Positions 10,013 to 44,661 of a stretch of DNA of 64,000 nt are shown here, in pieces (the stretch's first letter is position 1; each line of letters opens with the position of its first letter). The notes beneath the pieces were generated by a model. That model made no database searches. It saw only the letters and a list, made by a program, of their open reading frames with translations, and had not been told where the DNA came from. The translations under genes were made by a program, and so were the position numbers. Location: positions 12,347 to 76,346 of the forward strand of contig JANQNG010000053.1 in the NCBI GenBank assembly GCA_028279685.1, written 5' to 3'. This DNA is from Candidatus Nanoarchaeia archaeon (GTDB lineage Archaea > Nanobdellota > Nanobdellia > Woesearchaeales > SKIA01).

Positions 10013-10231
10013 TTAATGAAAAGAAGCAATATATCCCATCATAAATCCTTCCTCTATAGCATCAATGCAATCATTTTCTCCGCATTCTTGGACAAAAGAT
10101 TCATCATAGAATTGTTTTTCCTCTTCAGTTTCTTTTCTGTTTTCAATAATATCGAGTTGCTCATCTTCAAGAAATCTATTCAAAAAAACCATTCTTTCAT
10201 GTTCTTCTCCCATCTTTAACATTTGCATCAT
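10013..10231 (-). CDS. small highly acidic protein (hypothetical)
   Basis: 72 aa, Glu/Asp-rich; preceded by GGAGGTGA SD. Confidence 0.35.
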   Translation of the reverse strand: MMQMLKMGEEHERMVFLNRFLEDEQLDIIENRKETEEEKQFYDESFVQECGENDCIDAIEEGFMMGYIASFH

Positions 10232-10237
10232 ATCATA

Positions 10238-14693: not shown

Positions 14694-14835
14694 ATTAACA
14701 TCACCTTCTTGAATCTAATGTTTTTTTGGGAAAGCACTCATTCTAAATCATTGTAAAAAGTAACTCACCCCTTATGGTAAGAACTTTACGCTCTAAATTG
14801 TTTATAAATATTGCGCTTGTAGAAGATATAGATAA

Positions 14836-14924
14836 TGGACCAAGGGGGATTCGAACCCCCGACCTACGGCTCTCCTTCCAGATGATAGAAGGCCGTCGCC
14901 CTATCCAGACTAGGCCACTGGTCC
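14836..14924 (-). tRNA. tRNA-Arg(TCT) with ~14-nt anticodon-loop intron
   Basis: Manual fold: acceptor GGACCAG/TTGGTCC, D-arm GCCT/GGGC, 5-bp anticodon stem ACGGC/GCCGT enclosing CT-TCT-A plus 14-nt insert, AGGTC variable loop, T-arm GGGGG-TTCGAAT-CCCCC, discriminator A, no encoded CCA. Confidence 0.65.
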
Positions 14925-14948
14925 ATAGGGTTTAAAAATGCAAGTCTT

Positions 14949-20261: not shown

Positions 20262-20753
20262 ATGCAACTGGTGATATTCTTGGTTAATGAGAAAATAAGA
20301 GCGAAAGTTCATTATATAGCGGTTACGGGGATTGTAAGAAAAGGCAATAAATATCTGATCTGCAAGAGAAGCCCTAATGAGAAGGCGTTTCCAAATAAAT
20401 GGTGTGTGCCTGGTGGAAAGGTAGAAGTAAATGATTTCATCAACACCAATAAAGATACAAAAGATCATTGGTTTGATGTCTTTGAGAAAGTATTAGCAAA
20501 GGAAATTCTTGAGGAAACAAATTTGAAGATCAAGAATTTTGGTTATGTTTCTAATTTAGTATTCATCAGACCAAATGGATTTTCCACAGTCATTGTGAGC
20601 CTTCATGCAGATTATGCATCAGGAATAGTAACATTGGCCGAAGATGAGCTGATAGATTATGCGTGGGTCACTTTGGAAGAAGCCAAAGAATATGATCTCA
20701 TCGAGAATATCTGGGAACAGATAGCAATAGTTGATAAGAAGCTAAAGTCGTAG
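20262..20753 (+). CDS. NUDIX hydrolase
   Basis: Canonical Nudix box GGKVEVNDF...VLAKEILEETNL. Confidence 0.8.
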   Translation: MQLVIFLVNEKIRAKVHYIAVTGIVRKGNKYLICKRSPNEKAFPNKWCVPGGKVEVNDFINTNKDTKDHWFDVFEKVLAKEILEETNLKIKNFGYVSNLVFIRPNGFSTVIVSLHADYASGIVTLAEDELIDYAWVTLEEAKEYDLIENIWEQIAIVDKKLKS

Positions 20754-21149
20754 TTTTTTGTCGATATCTTTTGCTTTTCTTTTGATGAAATCAAACGCTT
20801 CATTCATTTCACCTTGGATCTGTTCTGTAAGCTTTTCAAGATTTTCAACTTTAAGGAAATACTTGTTTCTGGTTTCAGCTACAATGCCTGCTTCCATTAA
20901 TTTATTGAGATGGTGCACCACCGTTCCTCTGGAAAGACCTACTTCGAAAGCAAGTTCATCAGAACTCATCTGCCTATCTTGCTTCAATGCTCTAAGAAGT
21001 GCAATGAAGAGTCTAAAACAGCTCTGTTCTTTATCTCTTTTGTTGAATAAACCTAAAGTTTGACCAAACCATTGTAATTCTTCATTGATATTCTCTCTCT
21101 GAGGTATTTTACTCTTGATAATAGTTATCCTGCTGAAGCTAATTCCCAT
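20742..21149 (-). CDS. ArsR-family winged-helix transcriptional regulator
   Basis: LSRGTVVHHLNKLMEAGIV recognition helix; divergently oriented to the giant surface-protein gene. Confidence 0.65.
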   Translation of the reverse strand: MGISFSRITIIKSKIPQRENINEELQWFGQTLGLFNKRDKEQSCFRLFIALLRALKQDRQMSSDELAFEVGLSRGTVVHHLNKLMEAGIVAETRNKYFLKVENLEKLTEQIQGEMNEAFDFIKRKAKDIDKKLRL

Positions 21150-21238
21150 AAATTTGTAATAGTCTAGTGGTATATATAGTTATCCATTAATTTCTCCACG
21201 GGAAAACAATGCAGTTAACTTCAGAGTTAAGACAAATC

Positions 21239-21248
21239 TTTATATATA
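21239..21248 (+). promoter_or_regulatory. TATA-like box (TTTATATATA) upstream of giant gene
   Basis: About 60 nt upstream of TTG 21309; GGGGGG SD-like run 6 nt before start. Confidence 0.35.
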
Positions 21249-21308
21249 CTATTTAAGTAATAACACCAAACATAGGGGAACACAAAAGAAGTAATTGGGG
21301 GGTTAGTA

Positions 21309-24300
21309 TTGAACACTGAAATAAATAATAGACTATTCAGTCTCTATCTTGTGTTCTTACTGCTTTTTGCTCCCTCTATTCATGCTGCAACACTTTCTGG
21401 AACAATCTACTCCCCCACAGATGAGTTTGCTTCAGGATACAATATCTCGATAACCCAACAAAGCATTGTTCTTAACACCACTACAAATGGTTCAGGATAC
21501 TATAACTTTACTGGATTAAATGAAGGAGATGCTTATTATTTCAAGTTAGCAACAGGTTATTGGAATTATCCTTTCTTATCATTCTTCACTGATCTTTCTA
21601 GTGTAGAATTAATCAATGTCACGGGCAATACTACTATAGATCTTACTGCCTATAAAGCAACATTCGTATCAAGTCTTCCTGTTATTGCTTCTGATCATCA
21701 AAATGGTTCATTGATCAATGTCACGATAAATATTACTAATCTTGATACTATTGACGTCGAGAATTATAGTATAATTTTCGAGCTGCACAATGATAATGGT
21801 ACAGAGATGCTTACTGATTCGATACTGGAAGGTCTCACGTTACTTGCTAGTACGACACAAAATTATTCCATTGCACTTACGGTGCCAAACAATGCTACTG
21901 AGGGAGTTGCAGATCTTGTGCTACAAGTTGAGCAGATGCAAAACATTACTGATAATTGGGGTAATTATTCTCTTCTCCAAAGCAGAAATATTACTTCACG
22001 TTCTATAACGATTAACACAACAAGTCCTCCTGTGCCTGATATGCCTCCGAATATTTCGGTGTTGTTGGAGGAACCGTTGGATGGTTCGGTGTTGGTGAAT
22101 GATACGAATGTTTCTTTTATTTTCAATGTAACTTCTGATGAGGATAGTTCGTTTAATGTGAGTTGTGATTTCTGGACGAATGCAAGTGGTAGTTGGACGA
22201 ACAGTAGTGGCTTTATTGATATTACTAATCTTGCGGCTAATACGACAAACATATCGCAGTCATTTTGGAATGAGAGCTTAGGATTGGCTGGTTCTTACAC
22301 TTGGAATGTGCGTTGCTGGGATGAAAATAATCTGAGCAATTACGCATTTGCTGCGACAAACAGAACATACAATGTAACAGAACCAATTGCTGGTATTGCT
22401 AGTGAACTCTTCAATTACACTGTGCAAAAAACATTGATGTCTGGAGATCCTGCTACGGTTGGAGATATGAATATATCATTTCTGATTAATATCACTAACA
22501 TAGGAGGGACAAATCTTTCTACAATCTATGTGAATGATACTTTTGATGGTGCTGAAATAGCTTATAACTATTCATCGTTGACTTATACGACATTAGGTGT
22601 TGATTCAATAGTGTGGGACAACCTTACGAATATCTCAGGCATAGAAATGCTCGAACCAGATAACTCGATTCTCTTGACAGTGAATTTCTCTGCTATTGCT
22701 GCAACTGCGGACACCGTTAATATGGTATTTGTGAATGCCTCTGATGAAGTAGGTAATGAGAGTACAAGCATCCTGAATGCGACAGCGAATCTAGGCATTG
22801 TTGATCTTCCAGGAAATTTCACTCCTGCTGCAATCCTGATCAATCTGCTGCAGCCTATGAATCTTTTTGTTACTGATAATGCAACGAATATAACATTTGA
22901 GTTTAATGTAACATCGGCAAGAGAGAATGATTATCGTGTTGACTGTGGATTGTGGTGGAATGTTTCTGGAGTATGGAATCATTCCGGTCAGAGCAATATC
23001 ACGAATCTACTGGCAAACACAACGAATCTTTCAGAAGATTCATGGAATCTTACGGTTTCAGTGCCTGGTGATTATGAATGGAATGTCTATTGTTTCAATG
23101 CCACAAACTCAAGTGAATTTGCGTTTGCTGCGCAGAACAACACTTTTAATGTGAGTGATGCTGGTGCTCCAGAGATGCCTGTGATGATCAACATCACACT
23201 AACGCAACCATTGGATAATGCAGTCAGCGACAACGAGACAAATATCTCGTTTATGTTTGATGTGACCTCTGATGCTATGTCCGCGTTCAATGTGAACTGC
23301 AGTTTCTGGTGGAATGTTTCTGGCGTATGGGCTGATAGTGGATTTGAGAATAAGACAGGGCTTGATGCGAACATGACGATGATGACTACTGAGTTCTGGA
23401 ATGTTACTGTTCCTGCAGTTGAAAGTTATGAATGGAATGTGTTGTGTTGGGATGATGCAAATGCAAGTGAATTTGCATGGGCTCAACAGAACAGGACATT
23501 CAACATCACAGCAGCAGCCATCGCACAAACTGAAGGAACGAATATCACTGTAGATAAATCATGTAATGCAACGGTGAATGTATCTGATACGATTGAATGC
23601 CTTGTGAATATCACAAGCTCAGATATCAACAACATGACTGAGGTATGGTTATATGATGATCATGACTTTGCGTTCCTTAACTTTACTAATCAGTCAACCT
23701 GTCCTGTTCACAACTATAGCAACAGTCCTGGTGTGGACGGCAGTTATGTAAATGTCAATCTCACCTCCTGCTATGGTGGCTTTAATCTGACATTGGGCAA
23801 TTCGTTCCTTGTCTATCTGAACTTCACTGCATTGAGCGGTCTTGGCAATGAGACGATGAATATGGTAAATGTCACCTTCCAGTCAACGAACGGTTCTACA
23901 TTCTATCTCAATGCAAGCACGCTCATTATGGTGATGAATGATAGCGGCGGAATGCCTCCCTCAGAAAGCAGTGCTCTTATCGTCAATAAGTCAATTCTCA
24001 ATTCAGGAAATTTCACAGAAGGAGATAATATCACGTATCATATCAATGTCACTAACAATCATAGCATGTTGAACATGACTTCTATTTTCGTAAACGATAC
24101 CTTCCAAGTAAGTCAGCTAGAGTATCTTGATGCAAATGTCACTAATACATCTGGCGCATCAAACTTTGCATCCTGGAATGACATTATTAACCTTGCAGGA
24201 ATAGGAAGTCTTGAAGCAGGACAGTCATTGTCGATGTATGTCAATTTCACTATTGTGATCAACACTGGAGAGTTTACCAACACAGTAACGGTGAATGGCA

Positions 24301-27300
24301 CGCTTGAAAGTGGATTCTCTGAAGAGAATTCTTCTACAGTTACTGCTTCAGCTGGAGATGCAGGAGGAGAGTCTCCAACCATGGGTAATTATACACCTAT
24401 GTGGAATGAGGCAAAGTATGCGCAAAACGTCACGATTGATGACTTTGATTTCTTTGGAGCGCCGTACGTGGCAAGGGACAAAGGATGCGGCGGTCAGATG
24501 CAGGAAGAGAACACCAGTGCCGTAGCTGGGCAGAACTGCCACAATGATGGCATGATGAATCCTTCTGCTGATGGAAGTATTGCATTAGATCTTGGTGCTG
24601 TCTGGGTCGATGAGACATACGACTTCATGGCATGGAAACTTAAAGGACCATTCTCAGATCCTAATTATCATAACCTTAGTGTCTGTGGTGGAAATACAAG
24701 CTATGCTGCGTATGTTGTTGAGTTTGATGTTGATGACAACATATCAACAGGCTGCAGTACATCAAATATGTCTGAAGGATGTTATCCTGGTAGCGATTTC
24801 CAGATTTGGTATTTCCCTGATGACCATAACTCCTTATTTGCCTATTATAATGGCAGCGAACCTAGTGCATGGGGTCCGAATGATGGTGGGGCTTGTGTCG
24901 ATGGCATCTGCTTTGTAGCTAACACTTCAGTAAATGTCTCGATGAATGTCTCCTGTACAGGAGAAGGTATTACTATTGTGGTTAACAAGACAGATCTTCT
25001 CATAGCAAATCCTGCGTTGAACTTTGAGACGAACTCATTCAATGTAACACAAGCAACAACAAATCCTATTGATATGCTTACGAATTGGGGAGGAAGTGGA
25101 TTCATTGAAGCATTCTTTTTTACAGGTCCACAAGAAGATGTGGGAAGTTGCTTCCAATTTGATAACAATGAACAAGGATGTATTAATGCGTCTGATAATT
25201 TTTACTGTGTGTGGCAGGACTTTGGCGGAGGTAATGGTCTTTGTGATCCTGACTTCAATAACTTCCAAGAAGGTCAAGCTTGTTTTACTTATGATAACCA
25301 GACTGCATGTGAAAACAGCGATATTGGATATTGTGAATGGTTGACAAATGTTCCTGATCCAGACAATCCAGGACAAACACAAAATATTTGTGTTGAACAG
25401 TTTAATCCATTCTTGATTAGTGGTGGTGGAGATTGTGATACAAAATGTTTCGACTGCTTCAGCCAGACACAATGTGAAAACAGCAATGCTAATGGCGGAA
25501 GTGAATATGGTGGTTGTGAATGGTATATTGATCCGTTCAATCAAGTGGGATTCTGTGAAGCAAAAGGTATGAAGTTTGGTTGTGCAGAGAATCCAAGAGA
25601 TTGCTTTAATCAGACAGGTTGTACAGATGCAAATTGGCATTGGAATAATACATGGATGCTTTGCGCAGAAGATAGTTTAACGGAGATTTGTTTTAATGGA
25701 GTTGATGATAATGGTGATGGACAAATTGATTGTTCAGATAATGACTGTTTTGAAGAAAAAGAATGCGGTGGTCAACTCAATACATTAACAGGAGATTATC
25801 AAGGTATGAGTGCAGAAGAAGCAATCATGTCTTACTTCTTTGGAACAGGAGATCCAAACATTATACATTTGAAAGATGATAATGCTTCTGAAAATATAGG
25901 TGACTTATTCAATTTGACAAGTTTCAAAGTAGTTGTGGGGCCAAGAGGGATTGGTATGGGTATTGGACTTCAGAATATGTCAACGCTTAGCGCTTGTGGA
26001 GGAAGCATTGATGATCATAAATACATTTATGCATTAGATACTGATGCTAATAGTTCTTCAGGTTGTAATCTAACTATTGATGGTACACAGAAAGAGGGCT
26101 ATGAATATATAGTCAAATATGGGAATTTCTCAGTTGCTAATGAATCTGGGCAAGAAATGTATCTCTATCATTGCCTGCTTGATCAATGGCTGCTCAAGCC
26201 AGGATTAGTTGTGACGCCTCCTGCAGGAGAAGATCTTGATCCTGGAGAACCTGCCATAATGGAATGTCAGACATTAGCAACTACTCCTGATGAGGGTGCA
26301 GTTGCTGCGGTTATTATTGACAAGGCAGATATTGGTAATCCAAAAGAAGATATGAGATTTTTTGTAATGGTTGCTAATGTAAGTTATAACGGAGGTTGGA
26401 ATAATCTGTCGAATCTTAGTGCTGTTGATCTCATTGAGAATATCTATTATACTCCTGGCACTATTGGTGCTGAACCTATCGATTGTTTCCAAGAACCAAC
26501 AAAATGTGGTGCTGGCTTTATGCAGATTGGTGGCGGAGAGTTTATGCCATTTGAAGATTGTTTAGGTTCTGGAGATGAAGATATTGATGATCTTGTTAAC
26601 TGTGCTGATCCTGATTGTTTCTTTGCACCTCATTGTCAAGGCAGTCAAGACTTATTCGATGTGAGCAGTGATGTGACTGCACCAACTATTACGCTTGCAA
26701 AAGCAGATACTTTCGACGATGCTGCATTTATCTCCTGGACGAACAACGAGCCAACAAATGGAAGTCTAAGATTTTATCATAATGATAGCGCATGTTCTAC
26801 ACTTAATATAACCATTATTGATGAGGGATTGCCAGGATCTTTTGATGATTTCAAACCTTGGCATGGAGTGCCATTAGATCCAATGTCATTAAGTTATTCG
26901 CTCAGCGCAAGCACAACATATTATTATAAGATCTATTCAACTGATCGCGCAGATAATATAGGCGTTTCAGCTTGTTTGAACTTTACGACACTAGGATCTC
27001 CTCAGAATCTTTCCATGGTGATTAATTTCACACCACCCGTTAATGATACAGGTGATTTCTTAGGTAATCTCAGTATGGATCTCAATGGAGAACCATTCCA
27101 AATAGACAATACTAATTCAAAAGAATCATTGTTTGATGCAAACATTACTTTGTATAATCCGAGTGCAAATGCATCAAAGAACTGGAGTATTGAGCTTATA
27201 GAAGCAGATATCTTTCAAGATATGGTGTTTGACTTTAGTAGTGCATTACTGGCTAATGATTCTGGCGATCATGATGAAAATATTGGTATGGATGGCTATA

Positions 27301-39300: not shown

Positions 39301-42300
39301 TGTTTGAAGATGAATCTTATCAGGTTGATATTGTGGCGAGTGATCCTGATGGAGATGCGTTGACATTCTATGACAATACAGGATTGTTTGATATTGGTCA
39401 AACTTCAGGAAGAATTAACTTTACGGCAACGCAAGATCATGCCGATACAGGTAGTTATTCTGTTATTATTACAGTGACTGATGGTAATAACAACGATACA
39501 CTTTCAACGACATTCAGCATCGTAAACATTAATGATGCACCTGTATTGAGAAATATAGGAGATCAAACAGCACGTTCAGATAGACAATACACGCTAAGAA
39601 CGTCAGCATCAGATGATGATGGTGATACAATGACGTATTCAATGATCGGGCTTGATGCGTCATATCTAAATGTATCAACAGGAATACTTAATTTTACGCC
39701 AAGTAGAGAAGATATTGGCACAAGCAATGTCACCATAATTGTAAGTGATGGCAACGGAGGTCAGGATTCAGAAACATTCTCTTTTACCGTGCTTGATTCA
39801 AATCATCCACCATTTATTGTTTCGGCAACGCCAAACTCCAGCAATGTGACTATTAATGAACTTGAATCGCAGACGTTTGGCATTGTAGCTAGTGATCCTG
39901 ATAATACAACGCCTTCAATAACATGGTATAGAAATGGTACGCTTATAGCAGGTGAAATAGGTAATACTTTTACTTTTACTTCAAACTACAGTGATGCAGG
40001 AGATTATTTGTATGAGGCTCAGGCGAGCGATGGTATTATGACTGTAACACAGAGTTGGATTTTGACAGTGTTGAATCTCAACAGAGATCCGTTCTTCAAT
40101 GACTTTGCAAATCAAAATCTTACTGAAGATATTGCTTATTCAATGACAGTAACTGCTGTGGATCCTGATGGGAATGATCTCAGGTATTACAGCAATTCAA
40201 CATACTTTATCATTGACACAGATAATGGCACTATAAGTTTCACACCGACACAATCAATGCTTGGGTATAATGAATCAGTATCAGAAGAGGTTGGTATATT
40301 TGCAGAGGATGGTAATGGAGGATTTGGATCAACATCAATACTCTTTACTATTAATAATGTAAATGATGCACCGGTGCTTTCACCAGTAGGAACATTGACG
40401 GTGCTAAGCGGAGAGACTTTGTCAATGCAGCTTTCTGCAACTGATGTAGACTCATTGAGTTTAAGTTATGCTGATTCAGGATTTGATGGATTTAATATGA
40501 ATAATTCAGGATACATTAATCATACTTTTACAGCACAAGATCTTGGGTCACATGAAGTACTCCTTACGGTTGATGACGGGGATGGTGGTGTTGATGCTGA
40601 AGTTGTAATTATAAATGTACTCGATAGTAATCAGTATACGCCAAGTGTAGATTCATTCACACCTGCATCGAATCTTTCAATCAATGAAACTGAGTCAGTA
40701 GCATTTACTGTATCAACATCCGATGGTGATGGAACTACACCTACCATTAGATGGCTCGTTAATAATGAAATAGTAAAAGTTGAAACAGCAAGTTCATCAA
40801 CATACTACTACAGAACAACCTATGATACGGGAGCAGGAACAAATAACATCACCGTGAATGTTAGTGATGGAAGTAAAAGTTCAACTGAAACAAGAGCGGT
40901 TACTGTCCTGAACAAGAATAGAGCTCCTATTATTATACCATTAGGTAATCAATATGTTATTGAGGATAATTGGCACTACTTCAGATTTGATGTCGTCGAT
41001 CCTGATGAAGGAGATACCTTATTCTTCCATGCTAATTCGACACTTTTCGAGATCACCTCTATAGGGGAGAATATTATTGAGTATTCATTCTTCCCCACAC
41101 AAGCAGATGTTGGCGTGCATGAAATGACAGCGAGAGCAATGGATGGTACAACAGTGACAACTTTAGTTTTCAATATTACTGTTGTTGCAAGTAATGATGA
41201 TCCTATAATAACTACAATCCCTGCATTATTCTGCGATCAGGATGATGGCACTGATTGTGCATATGATGTTGAAGCATCAGACTCAGACGATACTGATCTC
41301 ATCTATGAGGCATTCACCGATCTTTTCACAATAAACCCATCAACAGGAGCATTCTCATTTGATGATTCAAATGTGCAAGCAGGATATTATGAAATTATGG
41401 TGCGTGTTTCCGACGATGAAGGTGCCTTTGATTTTGATATCCTTAGGCTTTTCATAGCAGATACCAATGAGTATCCAAGAATTGACAAAGTGATGCCTAC
41501 AAACAGCACGCAAAACATTTCGGAGTCAGAGTCAATAGATTTCGTTATTGATGCATGGGATCCTGATGGAAATGTTCCAACGGTAACATGGTTGGTTGAT
41601 GATGTAACGCAAGATAGACAGGCATTGCAAGAAAGATTTACCTTCAGAACAAACTATACACAGTCAGGCACATACACCATCACAGCAAGAGCTTATGATG
41701 GAAATTATGCCAATACAACATCTTGGACGGTCATCGTGAACAACGTAAGAGATTCAGACAATGATTATATCCCTGATTACTATCCAAATACCACGTTATG
41801 GGACAACTGCAGATACGTCTATAATCCTGGCCAGGTAGATCTGGATGATGATAATGAAGGAGATATCTGTGAGAATAATCTTGATGGAGATACCGTGCCT
41901 GATGATAGAGATAATGTCTTAGGAGATGCTAATAATCTTCAGTCTGATAGTTTTGATCACTTCTCGTTGCATATTGGAGGGGGAGATAATCTCAATCAAG
42001 AGTTTGATGGATCAAACAATGTACGATTCTTTGAAACTGAGTATTCGCTTGCTAATGGTGCTGCGACATCCGCACCCCTTATTGACATGGACTTCAACTT
42101 CAGCAATGGAACTCTTGATATGGGAAATTTCAGCATGGATCAACAAGCAGGAGGAGCCAGTGAAGGAAGTTTCTTAGCACAAGGATTTCCTTCAGGAGAA
42201 ACTAAAACAATCTATGTCGACAGTATACTCGAAGATAGCACAGTATGTATTGAAGATGCTGAAATAACTAGCATTGCAAGTATATCAACAGGATGTGCTG

Positions 42301-43181
42301 GCGCGAATGAGTATAATGTCACTTGCAATGGCACCATTGTTGAAGGTAATGGAACAAATTATACCTGTTCCTATGACTCAACACTGGATAAATACTATAT
42401 CACAGGGTTGCAGCATTCAGGAGTAATTGAAGTTGAAGCTGTAGACACAAGTGGCGATGGAGATGATGATACCACGACAACCACTGGCGGTGGTGGAGGT
42501 GGCGGCGGAGGCGGCTCCGGTGGAGGAGGCGCATCTCAAGGAGGTAATGGAACAGCTAAGATTTATTTTACGATGCCACAAGGAGGTCAGTATTATACCA
42601 AAGAGGTACATGATGATCTAATTGCGATAACTGAAGTTGAACTCTATGCAAGAGAGACAACAGGCAATGCAGTGCTTACTATAGCAGTGGATGATTCTTT
42701 TAATCTTGCATTGGAGAATGTCATAATATATCAAGTATTGACTATGGATTTGACTTCTGATGATCTTGTCAATCCTAAGATAACATTCACAGTACCAAAA
42801 TCATGGACCAATGAAATGCAGCTAGATAAAAATACGATCTCACTATATTCTCGAATAGATGGTGTTTGGACGCCAGGAGAAACAGTCATCAGAAGTGAGA
42901 ATAATAACAATATAACATATGTAACACAATTAGACACTATTTATTCGCTAGTATTAATAGGGGGACTTATGCAAACTATTGAAGAACCAGAACCTGTTGA
43001 AGAGGTAAGAGAAGCCATAGTTGACGATGAATCTGAAAAGAAAGGACTTCCTGCATTACTCAGATTGCCAAATAAGACAGTCACTGCGCTAATATGGTTT
43101 ATAGTCCTATTGCTGATCTTGATCATTACAGGAATCATTCTCAATGCGCACAGAAGAAAGAGGGAGAGAGAAATAGCATAA
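21309..43181 (+). CDS. giant (7290 aa) multidomain N-glycosylated surface protein / putative adhesin with embedded subtilisin
   Basis: Uninterrupted 21.9-kb ORF with signal peptide, hundreds of NxS/T sequons, DUF11-like repeats, beta-helix, S8 peptidase, cadherin-like array, TSP3 repeats and C-terminal TM anchor; TTG start. Confidence 0.9.
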   Translation: MNTEINNRLFSLYLVFLLLFAPSIHAATLSGTIYSPTDEFASGYNISITQQSIVLNTTTNGSGYYNFTGLNEGDAYYFKLATGYWNYPFLSFFTDLSSVELINVTGNTTIDLTAYKATFVSSLPVIASDHQNGSLINVTINITNLDTIDVENYSIIFELHNDNGTEMLTDSILEGLTLLASTTQNYSIALTVPNNATEGVADLVLQVEQMQNITDNWGNYSLLQSRNITSRSITINTTSPPVPDMPPNISVLLEEPLDGSVLVNDTNVSFIFNVTSDEDSSFNVSCDFWTNASGSWTNSSGFIDITNLAANTTNISQSFWNESLGLAGSYTWNVRCWDENNLSNYAFAATNRTYNVTEPIAGIASELFNYTVQKTLMSGDPATVGDMNISFLINITNIGGTNLSTIYVNDTFDGAEIAYNYSSLTYTTLGVDSIVWDNLTNISGIEMLEPDNSILLTVNFSAIAATADTVNMVFVNASDEVGNESTSILNATANLGIVDLPGNFTPAAILINLLQPMNLFVTDNATNITFEFNVTSARENDYRVDCGLWWNVSGVWNHSGQSNITNLLANTTNLSEDSWNLTVSVPGDYEWNVYCFNATNSSEFAFAAQNNTFNVSDAGAPEMPVMINITLTQPLDNAVSDNETNISFMFDVTSDAMSAFNVNCSFWWNVSGVWADSGFENKTGLDANMTMMTTEFWNVTVPAVESYEWNVLCWDDANASEFAWAQQNRTFNITAAAIAQTEGTNITVDKSCNATVNVSDTIECLVNITSSDINNMTEVWLYDDHDFAFLNFTNQSTCPVHNYSNSPGVDGSYVNVNLTSCYGGFNLTLGNSFLVYLNFTALSGLGNETMNMVNVTFQSTNGSTFYLNASTLIMVMNDSGGMPPSESSALIVNKSILNSGNFTEGDNITYHINVTNNHSMLNMTSIFVNDTFQVSQLEYLDANVTNTSGASNFASWNDIINLAGIGSLEAGQSLSMYVNFTIVINTGEFTNTVTVNGTLESGFSEENSSTVTASAGDAGGESPTMGNYTPMWNEAKYAQNVTIDDFDFFGAPYVARDKGCGGQMQEENTSAVAGQNCHNDGMMNPSADGSIALDLGAVWVDETYDFMAWKLKGPFSDPNYHNLSVCGGNTSYAAYVVEFDVDDNISTGCSTSNMSEGCYPGSDFQIWYFPDDHNSLFAYYNGSEPSAWGPNDGGACVDGICFVANTSVNVSMNVSCTGEGITIVVNKTDLLIANPALNFETNSFNVTQATTNPIDMLTNWGGSGFIEAFFFTGPQEDVGSCFQFDNNEQGCINASDNFYCVWQDFGGGNGLCDPDFNNFQEGQACFTYDNQTACENSDIGYCEWLTNVPDPDNPGQTQNICVEQFNPFLISGGGDCDTKCFDCFSQTQCENSNANGGSEYGGCEWYIDPFNQVGFCEAKGMKFGCAENPRDCFNQTGCTDANWHWNNTWMLCAEDSLTEICFNGVDDNGDGQIDCSDNDCFEEKECGGQLNTLTGDYQGMSAEEAIMSYFFGTGDPNIIHLKDDNASENIGDLFNLTSFKVVVGPRGIGMGIGLQNMSTLSACGGSIDDHKYIYALDTDANSSSGCNLTIDGTQKEGYEYIVKYGNFSVANESGQEMYLYHCLLDQWLLKPGLVVTPPAGEDLDPGEPAIMECQTLATTPDEGAVAAVIIDKADIGNPKEDMRFFVMVANVSYNGGWNNLSNLSAVDLIENIYYTPGTIGAEPIDCFQEPTKCGAGFMQIGGGEFMPFEDCLGSGDEDIDDLVNCADPDCFFAPHCQGSQDLFDVSSDVTAPTITLAKADTFDDAAFISWTNNEPTNGSLRFYHNDSACSTLNITIIDEGLPGSFDDFKPWHGVPLDPMSLSYSLSASTTYYYKIYSTDRADNIGVSACLNFTTLGSPQNLSMVINFTPPVNDTGDFLGNLSMDLNGEPFQIDNTNSKESLFDANITLYNPSANASKNWSIELIEADIFQDMVFDFSSALLANDSGDHDENIGMDGYSWMNIAQKFGVEYIIIKIPNNGETLYHCQDNGTNCTDVTSTNGVELLETTADYTKWKIPTTLGFSTYSAGGSTNETFNLTYANLTTTTQTINTSQNTFYLVNVTNNDNVTRGYNFSLEISGSVDWAINNSAGLNNIVFAVNESQVLNVSMNSTTEGTYAFNIIGINATNASIVLNSSEDLTLTLVVTNCFRPSNSTTVVLNESTTLCAGTYNKTRFQFNADNITLDCNGAILDGQNTTSYAVQVPNGIDGTTLKNCNITRYDNAYETQFIGDPAAYDYVINNTFEENEYGVYHVNNYLVMIINNTFYDNEWGIHWGNNDFGLIQNNNFTRHNYSAIEFDSSSVIRHAAIVDNYFEENALKGWQNAIEIDGQPEDILIHNNTFINNNNSNIQASSSFAMVRFNITNNYISNVKNGTTRNAITLYDVQNFYIAHNTLLNVNGSGIYASSGTNANITIYNNTIKHGGLTSTSAGISFVIGVYNSTITDNFVENFSYPIYLYGYSGDNVVYNNIFNLSVNPAYNGNSTNQFNTTLNCSSTNIIGGSCYGGNYWANATSGQGFSQSCTDADRDGICDSTYNISGVVDYHPLTNVGNDTYSDPYEYDDVYTSAKGVFTDGTWQFHNLSNASDIDWVNFSASDEEAYLIDTTNFSVTGTGAGQLDLYMTIYNASMTALETNDDANSGTSNARIKFIAPYDGIFYVKVQDYDSTKTYGNLSYAIQVEKQGRLVVVPVSHAAQSSSNYTLHTTFNVTTAVTCQGGPCREVVAILDPEPKINKKILDDIEKKGKANVIIKLKEKEEKKEPFFGIFASDKDVKEEFLDSINTRKLGEEEPQGFFAGVARALGIEQEPDLIVQHTYDVVDAVSGEITSESIEALLENDLIESIEYSVPVFASLFDTVDLINASTMQNYAINSTYMNGTGVTVCVIDSGINYTHPDFGSCSLTSDINDGSCPTVIGGINYCVDEACTSTDMNPIDTYGHGSHVAGIIASRDATYTGVAPGAKIVAVKALNSSGQASDFSNILAGINYCVANATTYNISVITMSLGSTVYTQHFCDEDYSSTRDAIQSAIDAGIMVVIASGNENKGYDDPLGISYPACIRNATSVGSTTKADAVSTFTNRAYTLDLMAPGGSIGATDYDGTHVSMSGTSMATPHVSGAAAIMQQYARELYDRNITALDIETRLRMFGVNIADSNSGLTYARIDVDNATLGKGIIPNTTGAVPFYIVADAGHAMQNPFWIGTMSDGETINTSWMVNATGNFTAYEFFSIYQSDFYESNTSHWEINITDMPNTPPYRNISPVTSANEDTLYYNDVQGLDNESHSISYSLNLIPTDSNASIDTNGSITWTPDNDDAAIQNYTFNLTLTDQLGDSSNYQYNVTVSNVNDAPTITSSPTSTATENTLYTYNATATDIDPTNDTMTYALQINDTNASMNSSGHFELYVNSTEVGITYNFTINVTDGNGGWDNQTWNVTVEDVNDAITISTTPNYNATEDALYHYDVNYTDPDTPDDDVSFYLTTYPTGMIINISDGNITWTPDNDDIGNNTVVVFAVENSTSEHYNDTHTFGVWVANTNDAPSINVTPNASATEDSLYTSTFTASDVDPTNDTMSYYLQSNTTNATINSSSGIFYFFPLQADVNIMHNFTVNVTDGNAGWDSLDFNITTSNVNDAPVISTAATTRSAEEETEFWLDVDATDEDSDTLTYSISTYPTSMVINSSTGNITWTPTNTQAIAYTHAVVVNVSDGNGGEDTLSFNVTVNNTNDIPVLNSTHNTTAIEDLEYTYLFSMNDSDNKSDSWNYTLISGPGNMTIGLDSGLIQFSPNNYDAINGSYIININVTEYNSSGANMSYQNISFNLTITNVNDAPSFTNEPSGQQSVLEDSAYNYDFDATDLDPTSDTLTYSLNISVSTNISAVTVGSSNGNLTWTPTNDEVGTITLQVDVSDGNGGSDNVTFTVLVNNTNDAPVISTTSPTSVATQGSEYTQQINASDADSGDSIMYQLNVSPSGMSMNDTGYITWTPNSTHGGNTYSVTVVVNDTSNAQDNLSWDITVNDVNDPPNITSSPSVNATEDVSYTYNVIATDPENDTLSYYLTIYPSGMTVTISTGQVSWTPTNSDIGFNNVTLQVIENATADHYSTTQNWSVYVSNVNDAPVLSGIPDQSFAEDSSSNVSINLSAYASDSDGDTLTYAIQSESNEGLVNCSVNSTTTLITCTDPSANENGASTVVANVTDGTSWDTDTFTITVTSVNDVPTFTDVPNTTITLTQDVAYSFDVNATDNDTNDTVADVLNYYDNTSLFNINPSTGIISFTPSSDDIGNHSVLIWTTDQSSANDTYAFTVTVQDANDAPTGTPIPNMQWNEDTNASINLSEYFTDADGDVLNFTAAVHNDTQNITITINNETGIALLVSAANWYGKRNVTFNASDPSAAVASIYVNLTVSSVNDLPVVAVSNISLQEDSAVQFINISGNVSDVDQSDLTAIVWAIDSSNTFSADLGTAQIINNTYLRIALTANAFGNDTIRLKATDTPGGSGYQTLLINVTGVNDAPSTPTIVIQPSAPTPTDDLTCSRTQNATDIDEDTIVYFIDWYKDGVLQTSYTNTSTVSSAATSSDELWSCVMTAFDGTVNGTAANTSTTIGNNPPTIPTIAFTPSLPYTSDMLYCNVTTNSTDADNDSIDYLYEFYKDNILNFTNQTNVTYAPLPSALTAKGEVWKCSVRAYDNKSYSNSTSSTRTIINTEPVVTVNSPVSGTPSVVEPDYQEFNLSVYDADNDFISFTWTKDAVQMVENNSNETFSSYSYYNNYTEAGNHTIVVSASDGQGSDTFTWTLIVNNTNRAVALDAIPAQTMTEDTAFSLTITANDSDTDDTLVYGENTSLFAIDTSTGVISFTPDNDDAAIPSKVYNVNITVTDGVSTDWEVVDFTVNNVEDAPVLSNIGSQTALTTIDYVLEMSASDADNSTITYNVTNLTTVTFLADGALNFTSSTGVFNLSANASHVGTYLLNFSVTDGNTTSDDSEIVNITIIDSNTAPNITSSFPSSNTPSINEGSSQQFWVTVYDNETTPGVAWYVDDVFNNSDTSWTFTTDYSSAGSYTIKAIVSDGEQSVQKQWVLTVLNVNRDPILSAIADQTATEDQEFSLTISASDADGDSLTFYDNTSLFNINPLTGAITFTPTNAQSTGDRVIKISVADQHGAIDTQDVTFTVQNTNDAPVLSAVGPQTAQSDVLFTRYIYASDIDLGITGVTESLTYSDDTSLFDVTTINSTLGVINFTPSRNDIGTHFIRISVTDSSDAVSNEYIFFDVLDSNSPPVFTNISLSGAIEDNLTSNATAVYSITETTAALTFNSTAYDPDGSQISTTWKIDDVLVSSTSGYVFTPSYTSAGNYTLVLNVTDGLAYVNRTYTIHVSNVNRDPTISALSNQSLTEDTLFTYQINGTDADNEPLTYAINDTRIPIDPQTGLINFTPTQLLLGKSSTTKMFELNVTVKDNVSGTNNGEVSAFVNFTLTNVNDEPEQVANVPDALFFEDQTFSINLSYYFDDPENDTLTYGVYATPVNITTTKIGSDSYNLTPAENFYGENNITFNVSDGALEIESNIVILTVQSMNDLPSINTSNNNLDIYLNEDSGTTSFNLTGNLTDLETPLSSLVLSISQDNRFSTELGSAVIEDKNITFTLASNAYGNDTILLRVTDADGGYSTATMFVNITNTADVPSAPSIDLVPDNATANDNLTCNITANSTDPDGDTVSYVREWYSGANVNSLSLQSDLTGNETITSSNTSGSEVWRCNVYATDGTLNSSTVSDIIITDNTPPTQPGIVIHPSTTVSRLATYTTDSLICNVTTTSNDTGIIYYNYTWYKDGLEQTSTRTTVSFVMLSSGSTSKDEQWRCGVKAEDDQGSYSQPASYVTRILDSTPTVDSRSPSDDNVTITEGQNTTFIYVVADADNDAISYAWELDDVAVSSVSNYTYSASYTSAGVHVLEVVASDGINELSASWDITVTEVARAPVISTVLEDTITVFEDESYQVDIVASDPDGDALTFYDNTGLFDIGQTSGRINFTATQDHADTGSYSVIITVTDGNNNDTLSTTFSIVNINDAPVLRNIGDQTARSDRQYTLRTSASDDDGDTMTYSMIGLDASYLNVSTGILNFTPSREDIGTSNVTIIVSDGNGGQDSETFSFTVLDSNHPPFIVSATPNSSNVTINELESQTFGIVASDPDNTTPSITWYRNGTLIAGEIGNTFTFTSNYSDAGDYLYEAQASDGIMTVTQSWILTVLNLNRDPFFNDFANQNLTEDIAYSMTVTAVDPDGNDLRYYSNSTYFIIDTDNGTISFTPTQSMLGYNESVSEEVGIFAEDGNGGFGSTSILFTINNVNDAPVLSPVGTLTVLSGETLSMQLSATDVDSLSLSYADSGFDGFNMNNSGYINHTFTAQDLGSHEVLLTVDDGDGGVDAEVVIINVLDSNQYTPSVDSFTPASNLSINETESVAFTVSTSDGDGTTPTIRWLVNNEIVKVETASSSTYYYRTTYDTGAGTNNITVNVSDGSKSSTETRAVTVLNKNRAPIIIPLGNQYVIEDNWHYFRFDVVDPDEGDTLFFHANSTLFEITSIGENIIEYSFFPTQADVGVHEMTARAMDGTTVTTLVFNITVVASNDDPIITTIPALFCDQDDGTDCAYDVEASDSDDTDLIYEAFTDLFTINPSTGAFSFDDSNVQAGYYEIMVRVSDDEGAFDFDILRLFIADTNEYPRIDKVMPTNSTQNISESESIDFVIDAWDPDGNVPTVTWLVDDVTQDRQALQERFTFRTNYTQSGTYTITARAYDGNYANTTSWTVIVNNVRDSDNDYIPDYYPNTTLWDNCRYVYNPGQVDLDDDNEGDICENNLDGDTVPDDRDNVLGDANNLQSDSFDHFSLHIGGGDNLNQEFDGSNNVRFFETEYSLANGAATSAPLIDMDFNFSNGTLDMGNFSMDQQAGGASEGSFLAQGFPSGETKTIYVDSILEDSTVCIEDAEITSIASISTGCAGANEYNVTCNGTIVEGNGTNYTCSYDSTLDKYYITGLQHSGVIEVEAVDTSGDGDDDTTTTTGGGGGGGGGGSGGGGASQGGNGTAKIYFTMPQGGQYYTKEVHDDLIAITEVELYARETTGNAVLTIAVDDSFNLALENVIIYQVLTMDLTSDDLVNPKITFTVPKSWTNEMQLDKNTISLYSRIDGVWTPGETVIRSENNNNITYVTQLDTIYSLVLIGGLMQTIEEPEPVEEVREAIVDDESEKKGLPALLRLPNKTVTALIWFIVLLLILIITGIILNAHRRKREREIA
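22020..23520 (+). other. three ~120-aa N-terminal repeats with conserved W/C motif
   Basis: NVS..FWWNVSGVW...YEWNV.CWD..N.SEFA.A.QN.TFN.T recurs three times, interleaved with DUF11-like segments. Confidence 0.5.
25100..25790 (+). other. cysteine-rich module (C-x-C-x-W repeats, possible EGF/dockerin-like)
   Basis: About 28 Cys in about 230 aa in recurring patterns (CINASDNFYCVWQDFGG, CENSDIGYCEWL, CFNGVDDNGDGQIDCSDNDCF). Confidence 0.45.
27900..28900 (+). other. right-handed parallel beta-helix (pectate-lyase-like) domain
   Basis: About 15 coils with N-rich periodic motifs (NNTF.NN, IxNNxF, NITNNYI). Confidence 0.6.
29080..29460 (+). other. pre-peptidase C-terminal (PPC)-like domain
   Basis: DPYEYDDVYTSA..DWVNFSA..LDLYMTIYNAS..NARIKFIAPYDGIFYVKVQDY..YAIQV. 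Confidence 0.5.
29560..29960 (+). other. subtilisin propeptide (inhibitor I9)-like segment
   Basis: K/E-rich segment ending VQHTYDVVDAVSGEITSESIEALLENDLIESIEYSVPV immediately N-terminal of the S8 domain. Confidence 0.5.
30010..30910 (+). other. subtilisin-like serine peptidase (S8) catalytic domain
   Basis: Full triad: VCVIDSGI (Asp codon about 30069), HGSHVAG (His about 30224), GTSMATPHVSG (Ser about 30730). Confidence 0.85.
31130..41760 (+). repeat. array of roughly thirty ~95-aa cadherin-like (Ig-fold) repeats
   Basis: Repeat junctions carry N(V/T)ND(A/P)P(V/T), e.g. VSNVNDAPTI, VQNTNDAPVL; each repeat has D.DG/D.D...T(Y/F) Ca-site-like motifs. Confidence 0.75.
34900..35500 (+). other. 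PKD/Ig-like W-C module triplet (first of two)
   Basis: Three tandem about-65-aa units with L.C....D.D.D...Y...WYKDG....W.C...A.D; second set at about 38380-38990. Confidence 0.45.
41745..41935 (+). other. thrombospondin type-3-like calcium-binding repeats
   Basis: DSDNDYIPDYYPN..DNCRYVYNPGQVDLDDDNEGDICENNLDGDTVPDDRDN. Confidence 0.6.
42484..42533 (+). repeat. GC-rich GGN codon run encoding poly-Gly linker
   Basis: ggcggtggtggaggtggcggcggaggcggctccggtggaggaggc encodes GGGGGGGGGGSGGGG after a TTTT (Thr) run. Confidence 0.8.
43085..43181 (+). other. C-terminal transmembrane anchor with basic tail
   Basis: LIWFIVLLLILIITGIILNAHRRKREREIA-stop. Confidence 0.7.
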
Positions 43182-43224
43182 TATTTATAAACAACGAAGC
43201 TAAATATGATTTGGGTGGTATAGC

Positions 43225-44661
43225 ATGAGATCGATAATCCTGAGTTTAATCTTTTTGATTCTGACATTGCCTTTAGGGTTTGCCCTCTGGGAAGAGCCTA
43301 CATCATCGAATTTGATGACTGCTGGACAAGAATTTGAGAGCAATGGCTTCACCGCAGTGGTTTTATCTGTCGATGAAGACAATGCTGATGTTCAAGTATT
43401 AGGACCAAGTGGAAAAATTGTGGGGAGAGGGATTATAACAATGGAACAAGACCTCACTATAGAAGAGGAAGTAAGGATCAAAGCTGAAGAATTCGTTTAT
43501 CGATATGAAAAATATCATGTTCTTTTCTCTTTGGAATCATGGATTGATGGAGAGATACTTGATGTTCATGCGCCTGAACAGTTTGAGTTGGATAGAAAAT
43601 ATGATGTTGAAATAGATATTAGAAATACAGGTCCTGCGGATGCTTCTTATGTTATGATGCTTGAGTATGATGATACTGAACTCTGGAGTGACGCTACATC
43701 ACGTCGTATATCTCTCGGACAGAACGAAAGAGGAACTATATCTTTTGAAATAAGACCGATCAAAGATATTACTAAGCCTATCGATTTCGTTCTTATTTCT
43801 GCAGATGAAGAATTAGGAAGAAAAAGTATATCAGGATTCTCTTTTGTGGAATCCCTTATCGCAATCAAAGAAGTTGTGTTTTCAGAAATTATGCAAACCA
43901 ACGGAGAATATCCGGTCACTATTGTCGTGGAGAATAATGATGAAGTTACAAAATCAATGAGTATTAAGCTTATTGGTGAATATTTTATCCTTAATACACT
44001 TGCGGGACCTGGAGACTTATTGAATGTCAATGTTCCTGCACATTCAACAGGAGAAGTTACGTTCTACGTTAAACCATTAAACAAAGGCATGCAGAACCTT
44101 AATGTTAAGCTTTATGATGATAAATTATTTGCAGAAGAATCATTAGTTGTGGTTGATGTGCGTGACACGAATGTTGGATATATAGGAACGATTACCATTC
44201 CAGAGAATATGGTCAAGGGAGAAGAAAATGAAATTACTATTGTTGTACACAATGCAGGGGCGGAGGAGAGTGAACTTGTTGTGAAAATCATAGCAGCTTC
44301 ACTTGATTATGATGTTTCTGAAAAGATGATGATTCTTGAGGGACAGTCTTCTAAGGAAACTTCTTTTACCGTGAAGCCTTTGCTTACTGGTGAGATTCCT
44401 TTTCAGATAGTATTATATCGTAATGATGAGAAGATTGATACAGAAAGTGCTGTTATTAACGTGAATAAAGGAACAACAACATCACCATCAATACCAACTG
44501 AAGATGATGAAGAATCTGAACTAGATATTGTTGTTTGTCCAGAACCTGAGCCTTGCAGCACAGGATTCAAGAAGGCATTTATCACTTCATTAGTTGTTAA
44601 TTTTCTTCTGTTGATTATCATTGGTATCAATCATTTAAGAAAAATGGGAATTACACTCTAG
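43225..44661 (+). CDS. CARDB-repeat surface protein with C-terminal TM anchor
   Basis: Signal peptide; several about-100-aa repeats with NxG..A motifs (DIRNTGPADAS, VVHNAGAEES); ends STGFKKAFITSLVVNFLLLIIIGINHLRK. Confidence 0.6.
   Translation: MRSIILSLIFLILTLPLGFALWEEPTSSNLMTAGQEFESNGFTAVVLSVDEDNADVQVLGPSGKIVGRGIITMEQDLTIEEEVRIKAEEFVYRYEKYHVLFSLESWIDGEILDVHAPEQFELDRKYDVEIDIRNTGPADASYVMMLEYDDTELWSDATSRRISLGQNERGTISFEIRPIKDITKPIDFVLISADEELGRKSISGFSFVESLIAIKEVVFSEIMQTNGEYPVTIVVENNDEVTKSMSIKLIGEYFILNTLAGPGDLLNVNVPAHSTGEVTFYVKPLNKGMQNLNVKLYDDKLFAEESLVVVDVRDTNVGYIGTITIPENMVKGEENEITIVVHNAGAEESELVVKIIAASLDYDVSEKMMILEGQSSKETSFTVKPLLTGEIPFQIVLYRNDEKIDTESAVINVNKGTTTSPSIPTEDDEESELDIVVCPEPEPCSTGFKKAFITSLVVNFLLLIIIGINHLRKMGITL

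Follow-up and report, generated by a model that had tools for sequence, protein, structure and literature searches.

Giant membrane-anchored surface proteins, named SPEARE, have already been recognised in DPANN archaea, where they are proposed to act as a host-interaction device (PMC6642349, PMC10266531). These proteins of Nanohaloarchaeota are 4-9.4 thousand residues long, and consist mostly of an extracellular, adhesion-rich body with a transmembrane helix near the C-terminus; the SPEARE protein of Ca. Nha. antarcticus has been detected by proteomics (PMC6642349, PMC10266531), and the assignment of a serine protease within SPEARE is disputed (PMC10266531). Another point of reference is the tetrabrachion of Staphylothermus marinus, the stalk of which bears the subtilase STABLE, with suggested roles in precursor cleavage and peptide supply (PMC5744192). 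This work concerns a single gene of 7290 codons, here called the giant, in a 64,000-nucleotide stretch of DNA from a Candidatus Nanoarchaeia archaeon (assembly GCA_028279685.1, contig JANQNG010000053.1, positions 12,347 to 76,346; hereafter the window, within which all positions are numbered). The most likely interpretation is that the giant belongs, in expanded form, to a widespread archaeal family of membrane-anchored surface subtilases, and is fused to a head module of DPANN surface proteins. It is an unusually large variant joining two known kinds of protein, the giant surface proteins of DPANN archaea and the surface subtilases with a membrane anchor, rather than a new kind of system, although the literature searched contained no description of its architecture, or of giant proteins in Woesearchaeota.

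The comparison with SPEARE is instructive in three respects. Firstly, whereas the protease of SPEARE is contested, the S8 unit of the giant is unambiguous. Secondly, the cytoplasmic ATPase or "restriction" domain (type III restriction or VirB4-like) that defines SPEARE is absent, as only about ten residues follow the transmembrane helix of the giant. Thirdly, SPEARE contain at least one laminin-G domain, and Pfam scans found none in the giant. Membership of this group, judged by its published feature definitions (PMC6642349, PMC10266531), was rejected for want of these cytoplasmic and laminin-G domains. A survey of proteins longer than 5000 residues found few to be archaeal, almost all of them with Laminin_G_3 (PMC11573180), and the giant differs from these in the same manner. 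As a separate observation, this hallmark of archaeal huge proteins and SPEARE ectodomains does occur in the window, in a separate protein of ordinary size encoded 7 kb upstream (12564-14693, minus strand), a 709-residue secreted protein combining Laminin_G_3 (E 9e-20) with MopE-like Cys-rich metal-binding motifs.

Other described systems resemble the giant in part. Tetrabrachion and STABLE likewise hold a subtilisin-family protease off the membrane on a long archaeal surface stalk, but STABLE is encoded on its own and attaches to a coiled coil through non-covalent contacts, whereas the giant's protease is covalently joined to an immunoglobulin (Ig)/cadherin-type stalk; there is no sequence relationship beyond S8, and the analogy is functional only. 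S8 domains have also been proposed to cleave giant Omnitrophota proteins, of which they form part, into several products (10.1101/2023.11.21.568195). Those proteins are also envelope-associated mosaics of a peptidase (S8 or C39) with TSP3 and dockerin repeats, but are bacterial, longer than 10 thousand residues, and equipped with many transmembrane segments and cytoplasmic enzyme domains, and their architecture is not that of the giant. With the bacterial cell-envelope proteinases (lactocepin, C5a peptidase and SGO_0316 types, with PA and Fn domains and an LPXTG anchor), only the S8 fold is shared: NCBIfam matches of the giant reached 37 bits against a cut-off of 1400 for SGO_0316_fam, and 66 against 300 for dentilisin PrtP, and it contains no LPXTG motif.

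The giant gene and its parts

The giant is a genuine, continuous single gene, as the original prediction had claimed. No in-frame stop interrupts its 21.9 kb, and a second copy is found on a 27.7-kb contig of the Logan assembly of run SRR20820740, the DNA of which has no mismatch to the window over 14,892 bases (from window position 33225 onward). The protein predicted from that contig (P0029; related proteins and loci are cited by P and L numbers) has 7276 residues, as it begins at a GTG 14 codons downstream, and is otherwise identical to the window's at every residue. The TTG is preferred as the start, because beginning at the GTG (residue 15) would cut into the signal peptide, while the TTG yields a canonical one; a GGGGGG run resembling a Shine-Dalgarno sequence lies 7-12 nt 5' of it. 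Direct DNA repeats between positions 21000 and 45000 are just 60-83% identical, and the 37 copies of the stalk domain share a mean protein identity of 24% (maximum 55%). It is therefore implausible that repeats were collapsed, or that near-identical stretches were wrongly joined, during assembly; these internal repeats are old.

Homologues also cross the boundaries between the parts of the protein. The junction of the N-terminal repeats with the Cys-rich module is spanned by P0001, P0002 and P0004, and P0148 continues from this module into the start of the beta-helix (to approximately residue 2250), with the beta-helix also matched separately in the same order. P0076 and P0059 span the passage from the beta-helix through the PPC-type domain to S8, while the matches of P0053 and P0047 begin in the protease cassette and extend far along the Ig array, their TSP3 and pre-anchor regions being matched separately in the giant's order. 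The same order of pre-anchor domain, PGF-pre-PGF region and anchor is present in P0134. It is therefore highly improbable that the open reading frame is an assembly artefact, a chimera or a decaying pseudogene, created by collapsed or mis-joined repeats or by the fusion of unrelated genes: although the contig is of metagenome origin, and both assemblies may draw on shared reads, two assemblers returned the same sequence, which lacks near-identical repeats, independent homologues span the part-to-part junctions, and a stop-free 21.9 kb with intact catalytic residues and conserved cysteines argues for selection.

By sequence and predicted structure, the S8 unit is unambiguously a complete and catalytically intact pro-subtilase. 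Its catalytic residues are intact and in the subtilisin order, comprising D2921 (VIDSG), H2973 (HGSHVAG), N3075 (ASGNE) and S3142 (GTSMATP), and the domain matched structures in the PDB at phmmer E-values down to 1.8e-35, and subtilisins at Foldseek TM-scores of 0.84-0.89. In an AlphaFold2 (AF2) model of the cassette, with a predicted local distance difference test score (pLDDT) of 75, the region preceding the propeptide, with which the conserved cassette opens, forms beta-sandwiches. The best matches of this model were to unautoprocessed pro-subtilisin E (TM-score 0.81-0.82), with pro-Tk-subtilisin matched at approximately 0.75 over about 460 columns, and ProN-Tk-SP (3afg) over 583 aligned columns. 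Across the Foldseek matches, pro-subtilisins aligned over 436-469 columns (TM-score 0.74-0.82), compared with about 310 for mature enzymes. As the model aligns over more columns to unautoprocessed pro-subtilisins than to mature enzymes, it indicates a complete pro-enzyme with a docked I9 propeptide. The nearest solved relative is Tk-SP of Thermococcus kodakarensis (3afg), whose pro-enzyme fold matches that of the giant, but which is itself small and secreted. The propeptide is rich in Lys and Glu (11% K+R, 22% D+E), and an autoprocessing site is predicted near residues 2886-2905, where cleavage would be expected. A complete subtilisin unit had been anticipated by the original prediction, which overlooked the PPC-type domain, the I9 propeptide and the jelly-roll.

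The cassette is followed by the longest part of the protein, an array in which Pfam recognised Big_9 (E 4.2e-102, in 14 stretches), Cadherin_4 (7.6e-36), He_PIG (1.2e-34), Cadherin_5 (5.9e-21) and PKD. An iterated hidden Markov model (HMM) delimited 36 domains, and a gap of 101 residues was filled by one diverged copy, giving 37 domains joined by linkers of zero length; the array of cadherin-like repeats is thus as originally described, but the earlier count of about thirty was too low. The domain consensus, DaP..tatED..sAtD.DgDtltY..VtDG..TV.NvN, includes the cadherin-type ED, DxDxD, DG and NxNDxP motifs, and the most conserved positions are D27 (37/37 domains), P3 (35/37), D73 (34/37) and N91 (31/37). 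The domains are arranged in nested duplications, among them a super-repeat of approximately 1158 residues (4206-5400 versus 5361-6540). These motifs suggest that the array is a putative Ca2+-stiffened stalk.

Between the stalk and the membrane, the TSP3-like repeats and the poly-Gly hinge listed by the original prediction are present, with the former matched more convincingly by NCBIfam than by Pfam. The conserved pre-anchor domain between them is 27-35% identical to regions of stand-alone surface subtilases (P0033, P0152, P0032, P0129, P0053 and others), in which its position relative to the anchor is kept. The PGF-pre-PGF domain, which the first reading missed, was matched at approximately residues 7100-7211, and this region aligns to the C-termini of P0004, P0044, P0050 and others. 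The protein has two hydrophobic segments only, the signal peptide and a transmembrane helix at approximately residues 7258-7281 (nucleotides 43080-43151), as had been foreseen, and ends in ...LPALLRLPNKTVTALIWFIVLLLILIITGIILNAHRRKREREIA. This C-terminus has no PGF motif, and matched no CTERM model at E <= 1; sorting by an archaeosortase through PGF-CTERM was accordingly rejected, and the C-terminus is treated as a plain transmembrane anchor. The predicted product is a type-I, extracytoplasmic protein of 790 kDa before the addition of glycans.

At the opposite end lies the distal head. Its first thousand residues comprise a domain similar to CarboxypepD_reg, the W/C repeat in three copies, each of which has a single Cys pair (286/336, 546/595 and 664/713), and DUF7507/DUF11-like domains, with internal repeats 35-48% identical; the DUF11-like character claimed earlier is seen, but in weak matches only (E 1.6e-4 and 3.5e-3). 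In the DPANN-specific disulphide-rich module that follows, approximately 35 cysteines are invariant in an alignment of 22 sequences, and an acidic double-disulphide repeat is present. Parts of the module may be similar to fibronectin type III (FN3) domains by reading of the sequence, with no family match in the giant. The module is 31-50% identical over about 1150 residues to proteins of Woesearchaeota, Nanoarchaeota and Gugararchaeum. A PDB sequence search with it found no relative, and its AF2 model is mostly beta (pLDDT 63); the Foldseek matches of this model to alpha-2-macroglobulin, complement and ciliary proteins (TM-score approximately 0.08) were generic strings of beta-sandwiches, and were dropped as functional leads. 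The order of this module and then the NosD-like beta-helix recurs in P0148.

Across the protein, sequons for N-glycosylation are enriched. There are 406 N-X-S/T sequons in the giant, relative to 154 +/- 10 in shuffled sequences (z = 24.7), and its density of 5.6 per 100 residues is 12-fold greater than the 0.45 of the 38 other proteins in the window. The distribution is graded, from a peak of 9.3 per 100 residues in the distal N-terminus, through approximately 5 in the stalk and 2.7 in the S8 catalytic domain, to 0.7 in the I9 propeptide and likewise in the PGF-pre-PGF domain next to the membrane. Similar densities characterise P0148 (5.5) and the cassette relatives (4-7.5 across the set). From this enrichment and gradient, the giant is very probably heavily N-glycosylated on its exposed parts. 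No glycosylation genes were seen in the 64-kb window.

Elsewhere in the window, a 397-residue protein (8110-9303, plus strand) with a lipobox-like LVAC has about three cadherin/PKD-type repeats, 24-32% identical to domains of the giant, and shares its NVNRAP linker motif. This protein is extremely rich in Glu and Asp, and has no sequons, such that one genome appears to encode two contrasting versions of this repeat type, one glycan-coated and the other bare and acidic.

Table 1. Positions of the giant gene, its parts and nearby features, numbered within the window
Feature	Position	Strand	Residues	Evidence
tRNA gene, 91 nt	14835-14925	-		ARAGORN "tRNA-Pyl", anticodon CTA at position 38; Rfam tRNA 56.5 bits
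ArsR/HTH_5-type winged-helix gene	20742..21149	-	135 aa	Pfam HTH_5 PF01022 E 1.4e-10, 41.3 bits vs cut-off 22
Divergent intergenic region, 159 bp	21150..21308	.		AT-rich TATA-like boxes for both genes, GGGGGG before TTG
Giant gene	21309..43181	+	7290 aa	Single open reading frame, TTG start, TAA stop
Signal peptide	21309..21386	+	1-26	R8 in n-region, h-region LFSLYLVFLLLFAP, IHA|A cleavage motif
Distal beta-sandwich region	21387..24398	+	27-1030	Weak Pfam/NCBIfam matches, internal repeats
Disulphide-rich module	24399..27878	+	1031-2190 (1160 aa)	Homology to DPANN surface proteins
Right-handed parallel beta-helix (NosD-like)	27879..29063	+	2191-2585	Pfam Beta_helix E 5.6e-23, NosD E 4.3e-20
PPC-type pre-peptidase domain and further beta-sandwich	29064..29588	+	2586-2760	Pfam PPC E 0.012
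I9-type propeptide	29589..30008	+	2761-2900	Pfam Inhibitor_I9 E 0.015; AF2 model
S8 catalytic domain	30009..30908	+	2901-3200	Pfam Peptidase_S8 PF00082 E 9.4e-44, 150 bits vs cut-off 21.8
Post-catalytic beta-jelly-roll	30909..31157	+	3201-3283	Sequence alignment to 3afg (Thermococcus Tk-SP) extends through
37 contiguous Ig/cadherin-like domains (~94 aa)	31158..41750	+	3284-6814	Pfam and iterated HMM
TSP3-like acidic Ca-binding repeats	41751..41948	+	6815-6880	NCBIfam throspo3_MtsC E 3.3e-9 (local); Pfam TSP_3 E 0.02
Conserved pre-anchor domain	41949..42458	+	6881-7050	BLASTP to stand-alone surface subtilases
Asp/Thr/poly-Gly flexible linker	42459..42578	+	7051-7090	Sequence read
PGF-pre-PGF domain	42579..43013	+	7091-7235	NCBIfam TIGR04213 E 2.2e-9, 37.5 bits vs cut-off 28
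Acidic spacer, transmembrane helix, basic tail (~10 aa) and TAA	43014..43181	+		Kyte-Doolittle maximum 3.22
Companion, type-I membrane protein	43225..44661	+	478 aa	Signal peptide, CARDB-like beta-sandwiches, C-terminal transmembrane helix

Relatives and origin of the mosaic

When 1.84 billion representatives were searched exhaustively with HMMER, no close or characterised full-length homologue of the giant was recovered. Its 50% cluster contains no other member, and its best partial relatives are 46-50% identical, so the close homologue of known function that the original prediction had allowed for did not emerge. Instead, the relatives of the giant correspond to its separate parts, and fall chiefly into two families.

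The first consists of archaeal surface subtilases known from metagenomes (such as P0030-P0042). Many proteins of 1.0-1.5 thousand residues contain the entire protease cassette of about 700 residues, at 39-46% identity, directly after the signal peptide; in the giant, by contrast, the cassette is preceded by 2585 residues and followed by 37 Ig domains. One subset of these relatives has the pre-anchor domain, and another has the PGF-pre-PGF region, while a hydrophobic C-terminal anchor is found in 60 of 149 cassette proteins. Of 174 related proteins, 58 have a poly-Gly run of at least six residues close to the C-terminus. P0053 and P0047 combine the cassette with a longer Ig array. The layout of this family is a PPC domain, I9, S8, a jelly-roll, a few Ig domains, the pre-anchor domain, a poly-Gly linker, the PGF-pre-PGF domain and a transmembrane helix.

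The second family shares the disulphide-rich module, which is the core of DPANN surface proteins of 1.6-3 thousand residues from Woesearchaeota, Nanoarchaeota and Ca. Gugararchaeum (P0001-P0009; L004-L022), several of them annotated by NCBI as "PGF-pre-PGF domain-containing protein". These have the same approximately 35 invariant cysteines, but not the beta-helix, protease or long Ig array of the giant. Searches that included a genome scan with a 9-sequence alignment of the module placed the family in 19 GTDB species genomes, and 20 or more proteins or loci match the module at 31-50% identity. Hydrophobic anchors end 14 of 25 members, and their genes sit among housekeeping genes. No S8, beta-helix or Ig-array gene was detected in or within 10 kb of the module genes at loci L002-L023, except for the fusion at L023, and a split arrangement, with the module beside a separate gene of any of these types, was therefore not found at these loci. 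A scan of the genome-contig collection with the segment from beta-helix to S8 returned no relative.

The exception at L023 is P0148, a co-linear metagenomic relative of 5051 residues (ENA ERZ27262661), in which a W/C-like N-terminus, the module, a beta-helix, the S8 cassette, Ig repeats, a transmembrane helix and a basic tail follow one another as in the giant, but with a much shorter Ig array and different gene neighbours. The modules of the two proteins are 44-46% identical, and belong to the same subclade, whereas their S8 cassettes are 33% identical and not mutual nearest relatives (ranks 67 and 40). Hence the pairing of module and subtilase may have arisen more than once, or the cassette may have been replaced. 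A further protein, P0164 (3467 residues), resembles P0148 closely at its N- and C-termini, and the S8 cassettes of the two are 58% identical, but P0164 gave no detectable match to the Cys-rich module. Related giants therefore apparently exist both with and without the module.

Two side observations concern the module genes. At L015, in a Nanoarchaeota metagenome-assembled genome (MAG), the interval 1905-10232 holds two or three tandem module segments (1905-2435, 4083-5480 and 6612-10232), which suggests a local expansion of paralogues. Membrane-anchored thioredoxin/DsbA-like genes lie 0.7-3 kb downstream of module genes at L002 (21331-21921) and at L003/L007 (15404-16075); a linkage between them was dropped as a candidate, as it was seen at two independent loci only, and not in the window.

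The original prediction was of a combination that is not a described family. The mosaic itself is real: a single polypeptide, anchored at its C-terminus, contains adhesion domains, repeats of the Ca type and a complete protease. The claim of novelty is not supported, as each part can be placed in a recognisable family, the C-terminal two thirds are laid out like the archaeal surface subtilases, the Cys-rich part is the core of a known DPANN family, and P0148 is co-linear. Two changes probably converted a surface subtilase into the giant. Firstly, the Ig/cadherin segment would have grown to 37 domains through nested duplications. Secondly, the N-terminus would have gained about 2600 residues, consisting of glycan-rich beta-sandwich repeats, the disulphide-rich module and the NosD-like beta-helix.

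Proposed function and its rivals

The order of these parts suggests how the protein might work. It would be exported through Sec, losing its signal peptide and acquiring glycans at many of its sequons, and be held in the membrane by its C-terminal helix, with the PGF-pre-PGF domain at the level of the envelope. Binding of Ca2+ at the cadherin-type sites between domains would make the 37-domain array a semi-rigid stalk. Cadherin repeats measure approximately 4.5 nm per domain, from which a length of roughly 150 nm would follow, carrying the protease and head well past the cell's own envelope. There, the beta-sandwich repeats, Cys-rich module and beta-helix of the head would bind a partner surface or polymer. 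The propeptides of subtilases are normally autocleaved. I9 would aid the folding of the pro-subtilase, and self-cleavage near the predicted site would leave the head, of about 2900 residues, either held through the propeptide or released, with the stalk-borne protease active on a bound target, which could be a protein of a host cell's envelope or of the environment.

At its most general, this proposal, which is considered probable, is that the giant combines contact with a host or substrate with proteolysis, probably including cleavage of itself. Contact with hosts is expected of DPANN archaea (PMC6642349, PMC10266531). The "attachment and processing apparatus" suggested by the original prediction is correspondingly a reasonable description of its likely function. 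The more specific version is that the giant is a self-cleaving surface polyprotein, with a detached or propeptide-tethered head and a subtilase on a stalk of about 150 nm, forming a tool for seizing hosts and opening their envelopes that DPANN archaea assembled more than once; this is unlikely to hold in full, and is offered tentatively. Several considerations weigh against the proposal as a whole. The I9 and PPC domains are weak by sequence (E approximately 0.01), and otherwise depend mainly on the structure model. Both the binding of Ca2+ and the length of the stalk are extrapolated from the similarity of motifs. No activity could be assigned to the Cys-rich module or the N-terminal repeats; the model of the module is of moderate quality, and its fold search was uninformative. 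The symbiotic lifestyle of the source organism is assumed from its lineage, and the Logan and deposited contigs were possibly built from the same reads.

The strongest rival explanation is that the giant is a component of the S-layer or canopy combined with a nutritional protease, which builds or decorates the cell's own envelope and digests environmental protein without contact with a host. The family defined by the module would then be the wall protein of this lineage, and the giant a covalent version of tetrabrachion and STABLE, a pair proposed to serve nutritional and precursor-cleaving roles (PMC5744192). The spread of the module family through Woesearchaeota and Nanoarchaeota amid housekeeping genes is consistent with such a role, as are the anchors of 14 of its 25 members, the PGF-pre-PGF annotation of several, and a sequon load typical of archaeal wall glycoproteins. 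However, in members of this family an anchor of the protein's own usually lies near the module, whereas the 37 stalk domains that separate module from membrane in the giant would suit far reach better than assembly into a lattice. This purely envelope-based role is accordingly regarded as rather unlikely, although it merits serious consideration. A cryo-electron tomography paper on DPANN archaea identified no DPANN wall protein.

A further alternative extends the proposal of attachment and proteolysis to the adjacent genes. It supposes a three-gene system, in which the ArsR-type regulator controls the giant, and the companion is a dedicated partner, such as a co-receptor, dock or assembly factor. 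The arrangement is suggestive: as the original prediction described, an HTH_5 gene lies divergently upstream, separated by 159 bp, and 44 nt past the giant's stop, on the same strand, begins a protein with a signal peptide, weak CARDB matches (Pfam E 7.6e-7, with no single stretch passing) and a similar type of anchor. The intergenic region may act as a promoter, and contains a weak, imperfect 14-nt palindrome (21205-21228, 79% complementary). Genes of the ArsR type, 51-53% identical to the upstream gene, also adjoin module genes of approximately 1650 codons in two related Woesearchaeota MAGs (L011, 14881-15339, and L012, 14956-15429, both on the minus strand).

Yet each element of this arrangement weakens on comparison. 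The HTH_5 protein lacks the CXC metal-site motif, and its single Cys lies in EQSCFRL, so its sequence marks it as a winged-helix protein of generic type, with no demonstrable metal-sensing role. Where its homologues adjoin module genes, they lie immediately downstream and convergent with them, not divergently upstream; the regulator is absent from about 17 other module loci and from that of P0148, and, since L011 and L012 represent one lineage, the recurrence amounts to approximately one independent observation, and is weak. The companion has its own TATA-like TTTATAAA box, and GGTGG before its ATG, has no sequons compared with 406 in the giant, and has no homologue at E <= 1e-3; as an orphan, it was rejected as a conserved partner. 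P0148 has neither neighbour. Hence the three genes are not accepted as a unit, contrary to the original prediction of a joint locus, and the three-gene system is considered improbable. Beyond it, a 307-residue gene (44658-45581, minus strand) is convergent with the companion gene, their ends overlapping by 4 nt, and encodes a weak kinase-like N-terminal region and the DNA-binding domain of an O6-methylguanine-DNA methyltransferase (E 1.2e-17).

It is very unlikely that the giant is a conduit of the SPEARE or type-IV-secretion-like kind, in which an ATPase or nuclease on the cytoplasmic side, coupled to the ectodomain, would transfer material from one cell to another: it shares with such proteins a giant, adhesion-rich ectodomain, a near-C-terminal transmembrane helix and a DPANN host (PMC6642349, PMC10266531), but the most conserved SPEARE feature is the cytoplasmic domain, in place of which the giant has its short tail, no Laminin_G or toxin-like domain was found in the Pfam scans, and no VirB4-like gene lies downstream.

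The host organism and the significance of the giant

The window contains characteristic archaeal genes, including those for aRF1, ribosomal L1, an L10P with the archaeal insertion, aIF5B, aIF5A and the archaeal CCA-adding enzyme, as well as an intron-containing tRNA and grpE-dnaK-dnaJ. The named matches of aIF5B are all from Nanoarchaeota or (Candidatus) Woesearchaeota, at no more than 62% identity, and the nearest relatives of the giant's Cys-rich module are from Woesearchaeota and Nanoarchaeota MAGs. Hence the source is taken to be a divergent archaeon of the Woesearchaeota type within DPANN. As related complete genomes are approximately 1.1-1.6 Mb, the giant gene could occupy about 2% of a roughly 1-Mb genome.

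The tRNA reported as tRNA-Pyl raised the possibility that a stop codon is recoded, through its CUA anticodon. Inspection by eye instead identified the stem ACGGC/GCCGT, the anticodon UCU (Arg), and a 14-nt intron at the canonical 37/38 site, and genes in the window end at TAA, TGA and TAG alike. Recoding was therefore rejected, in favour of a tRNA-Arg(UCU) with an intron. The chaperone genes grpE-dnaK-dnaJ form a cluster in this DPANN archaeon (3926-8008, plus strand), in which a further open reading frame (4326-4997), read in a different frame, encodes a CxxCxxCC domain and shares sequence with both the end of grpE and the beginning of dnaK.

Little is known of the means by which DPANN archaea identify, grip and breach their hosts, for which SPEARE proteins are the best-known candidates. 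The giant, which is among the largest archaeal proteins, is a cleaner case than SPEARE, since it combines an unambiguous, complete pro-subtilase with an anchored, sequon-rich adhesin. As a fusion of the "Rosetta stone" type, it leads to the prediction that, in related archaea, the module proteins and surface subtilases that are encoded separately act jointly. Its separable parts also offer fragments suitable for expression, in the form of the 700-residue cassette, stalk pieces of three or four domains, and the module. Even as no more than a part of the wall, with a protease for feeding, the giant would join a very small number of enzymatically active proteins of archaeal envelopes. If module and subtilase have indeed been assembled repeatedly, then the giant would represent a covalent, and far larger, counterpart of tetrabrachion and STABLE.

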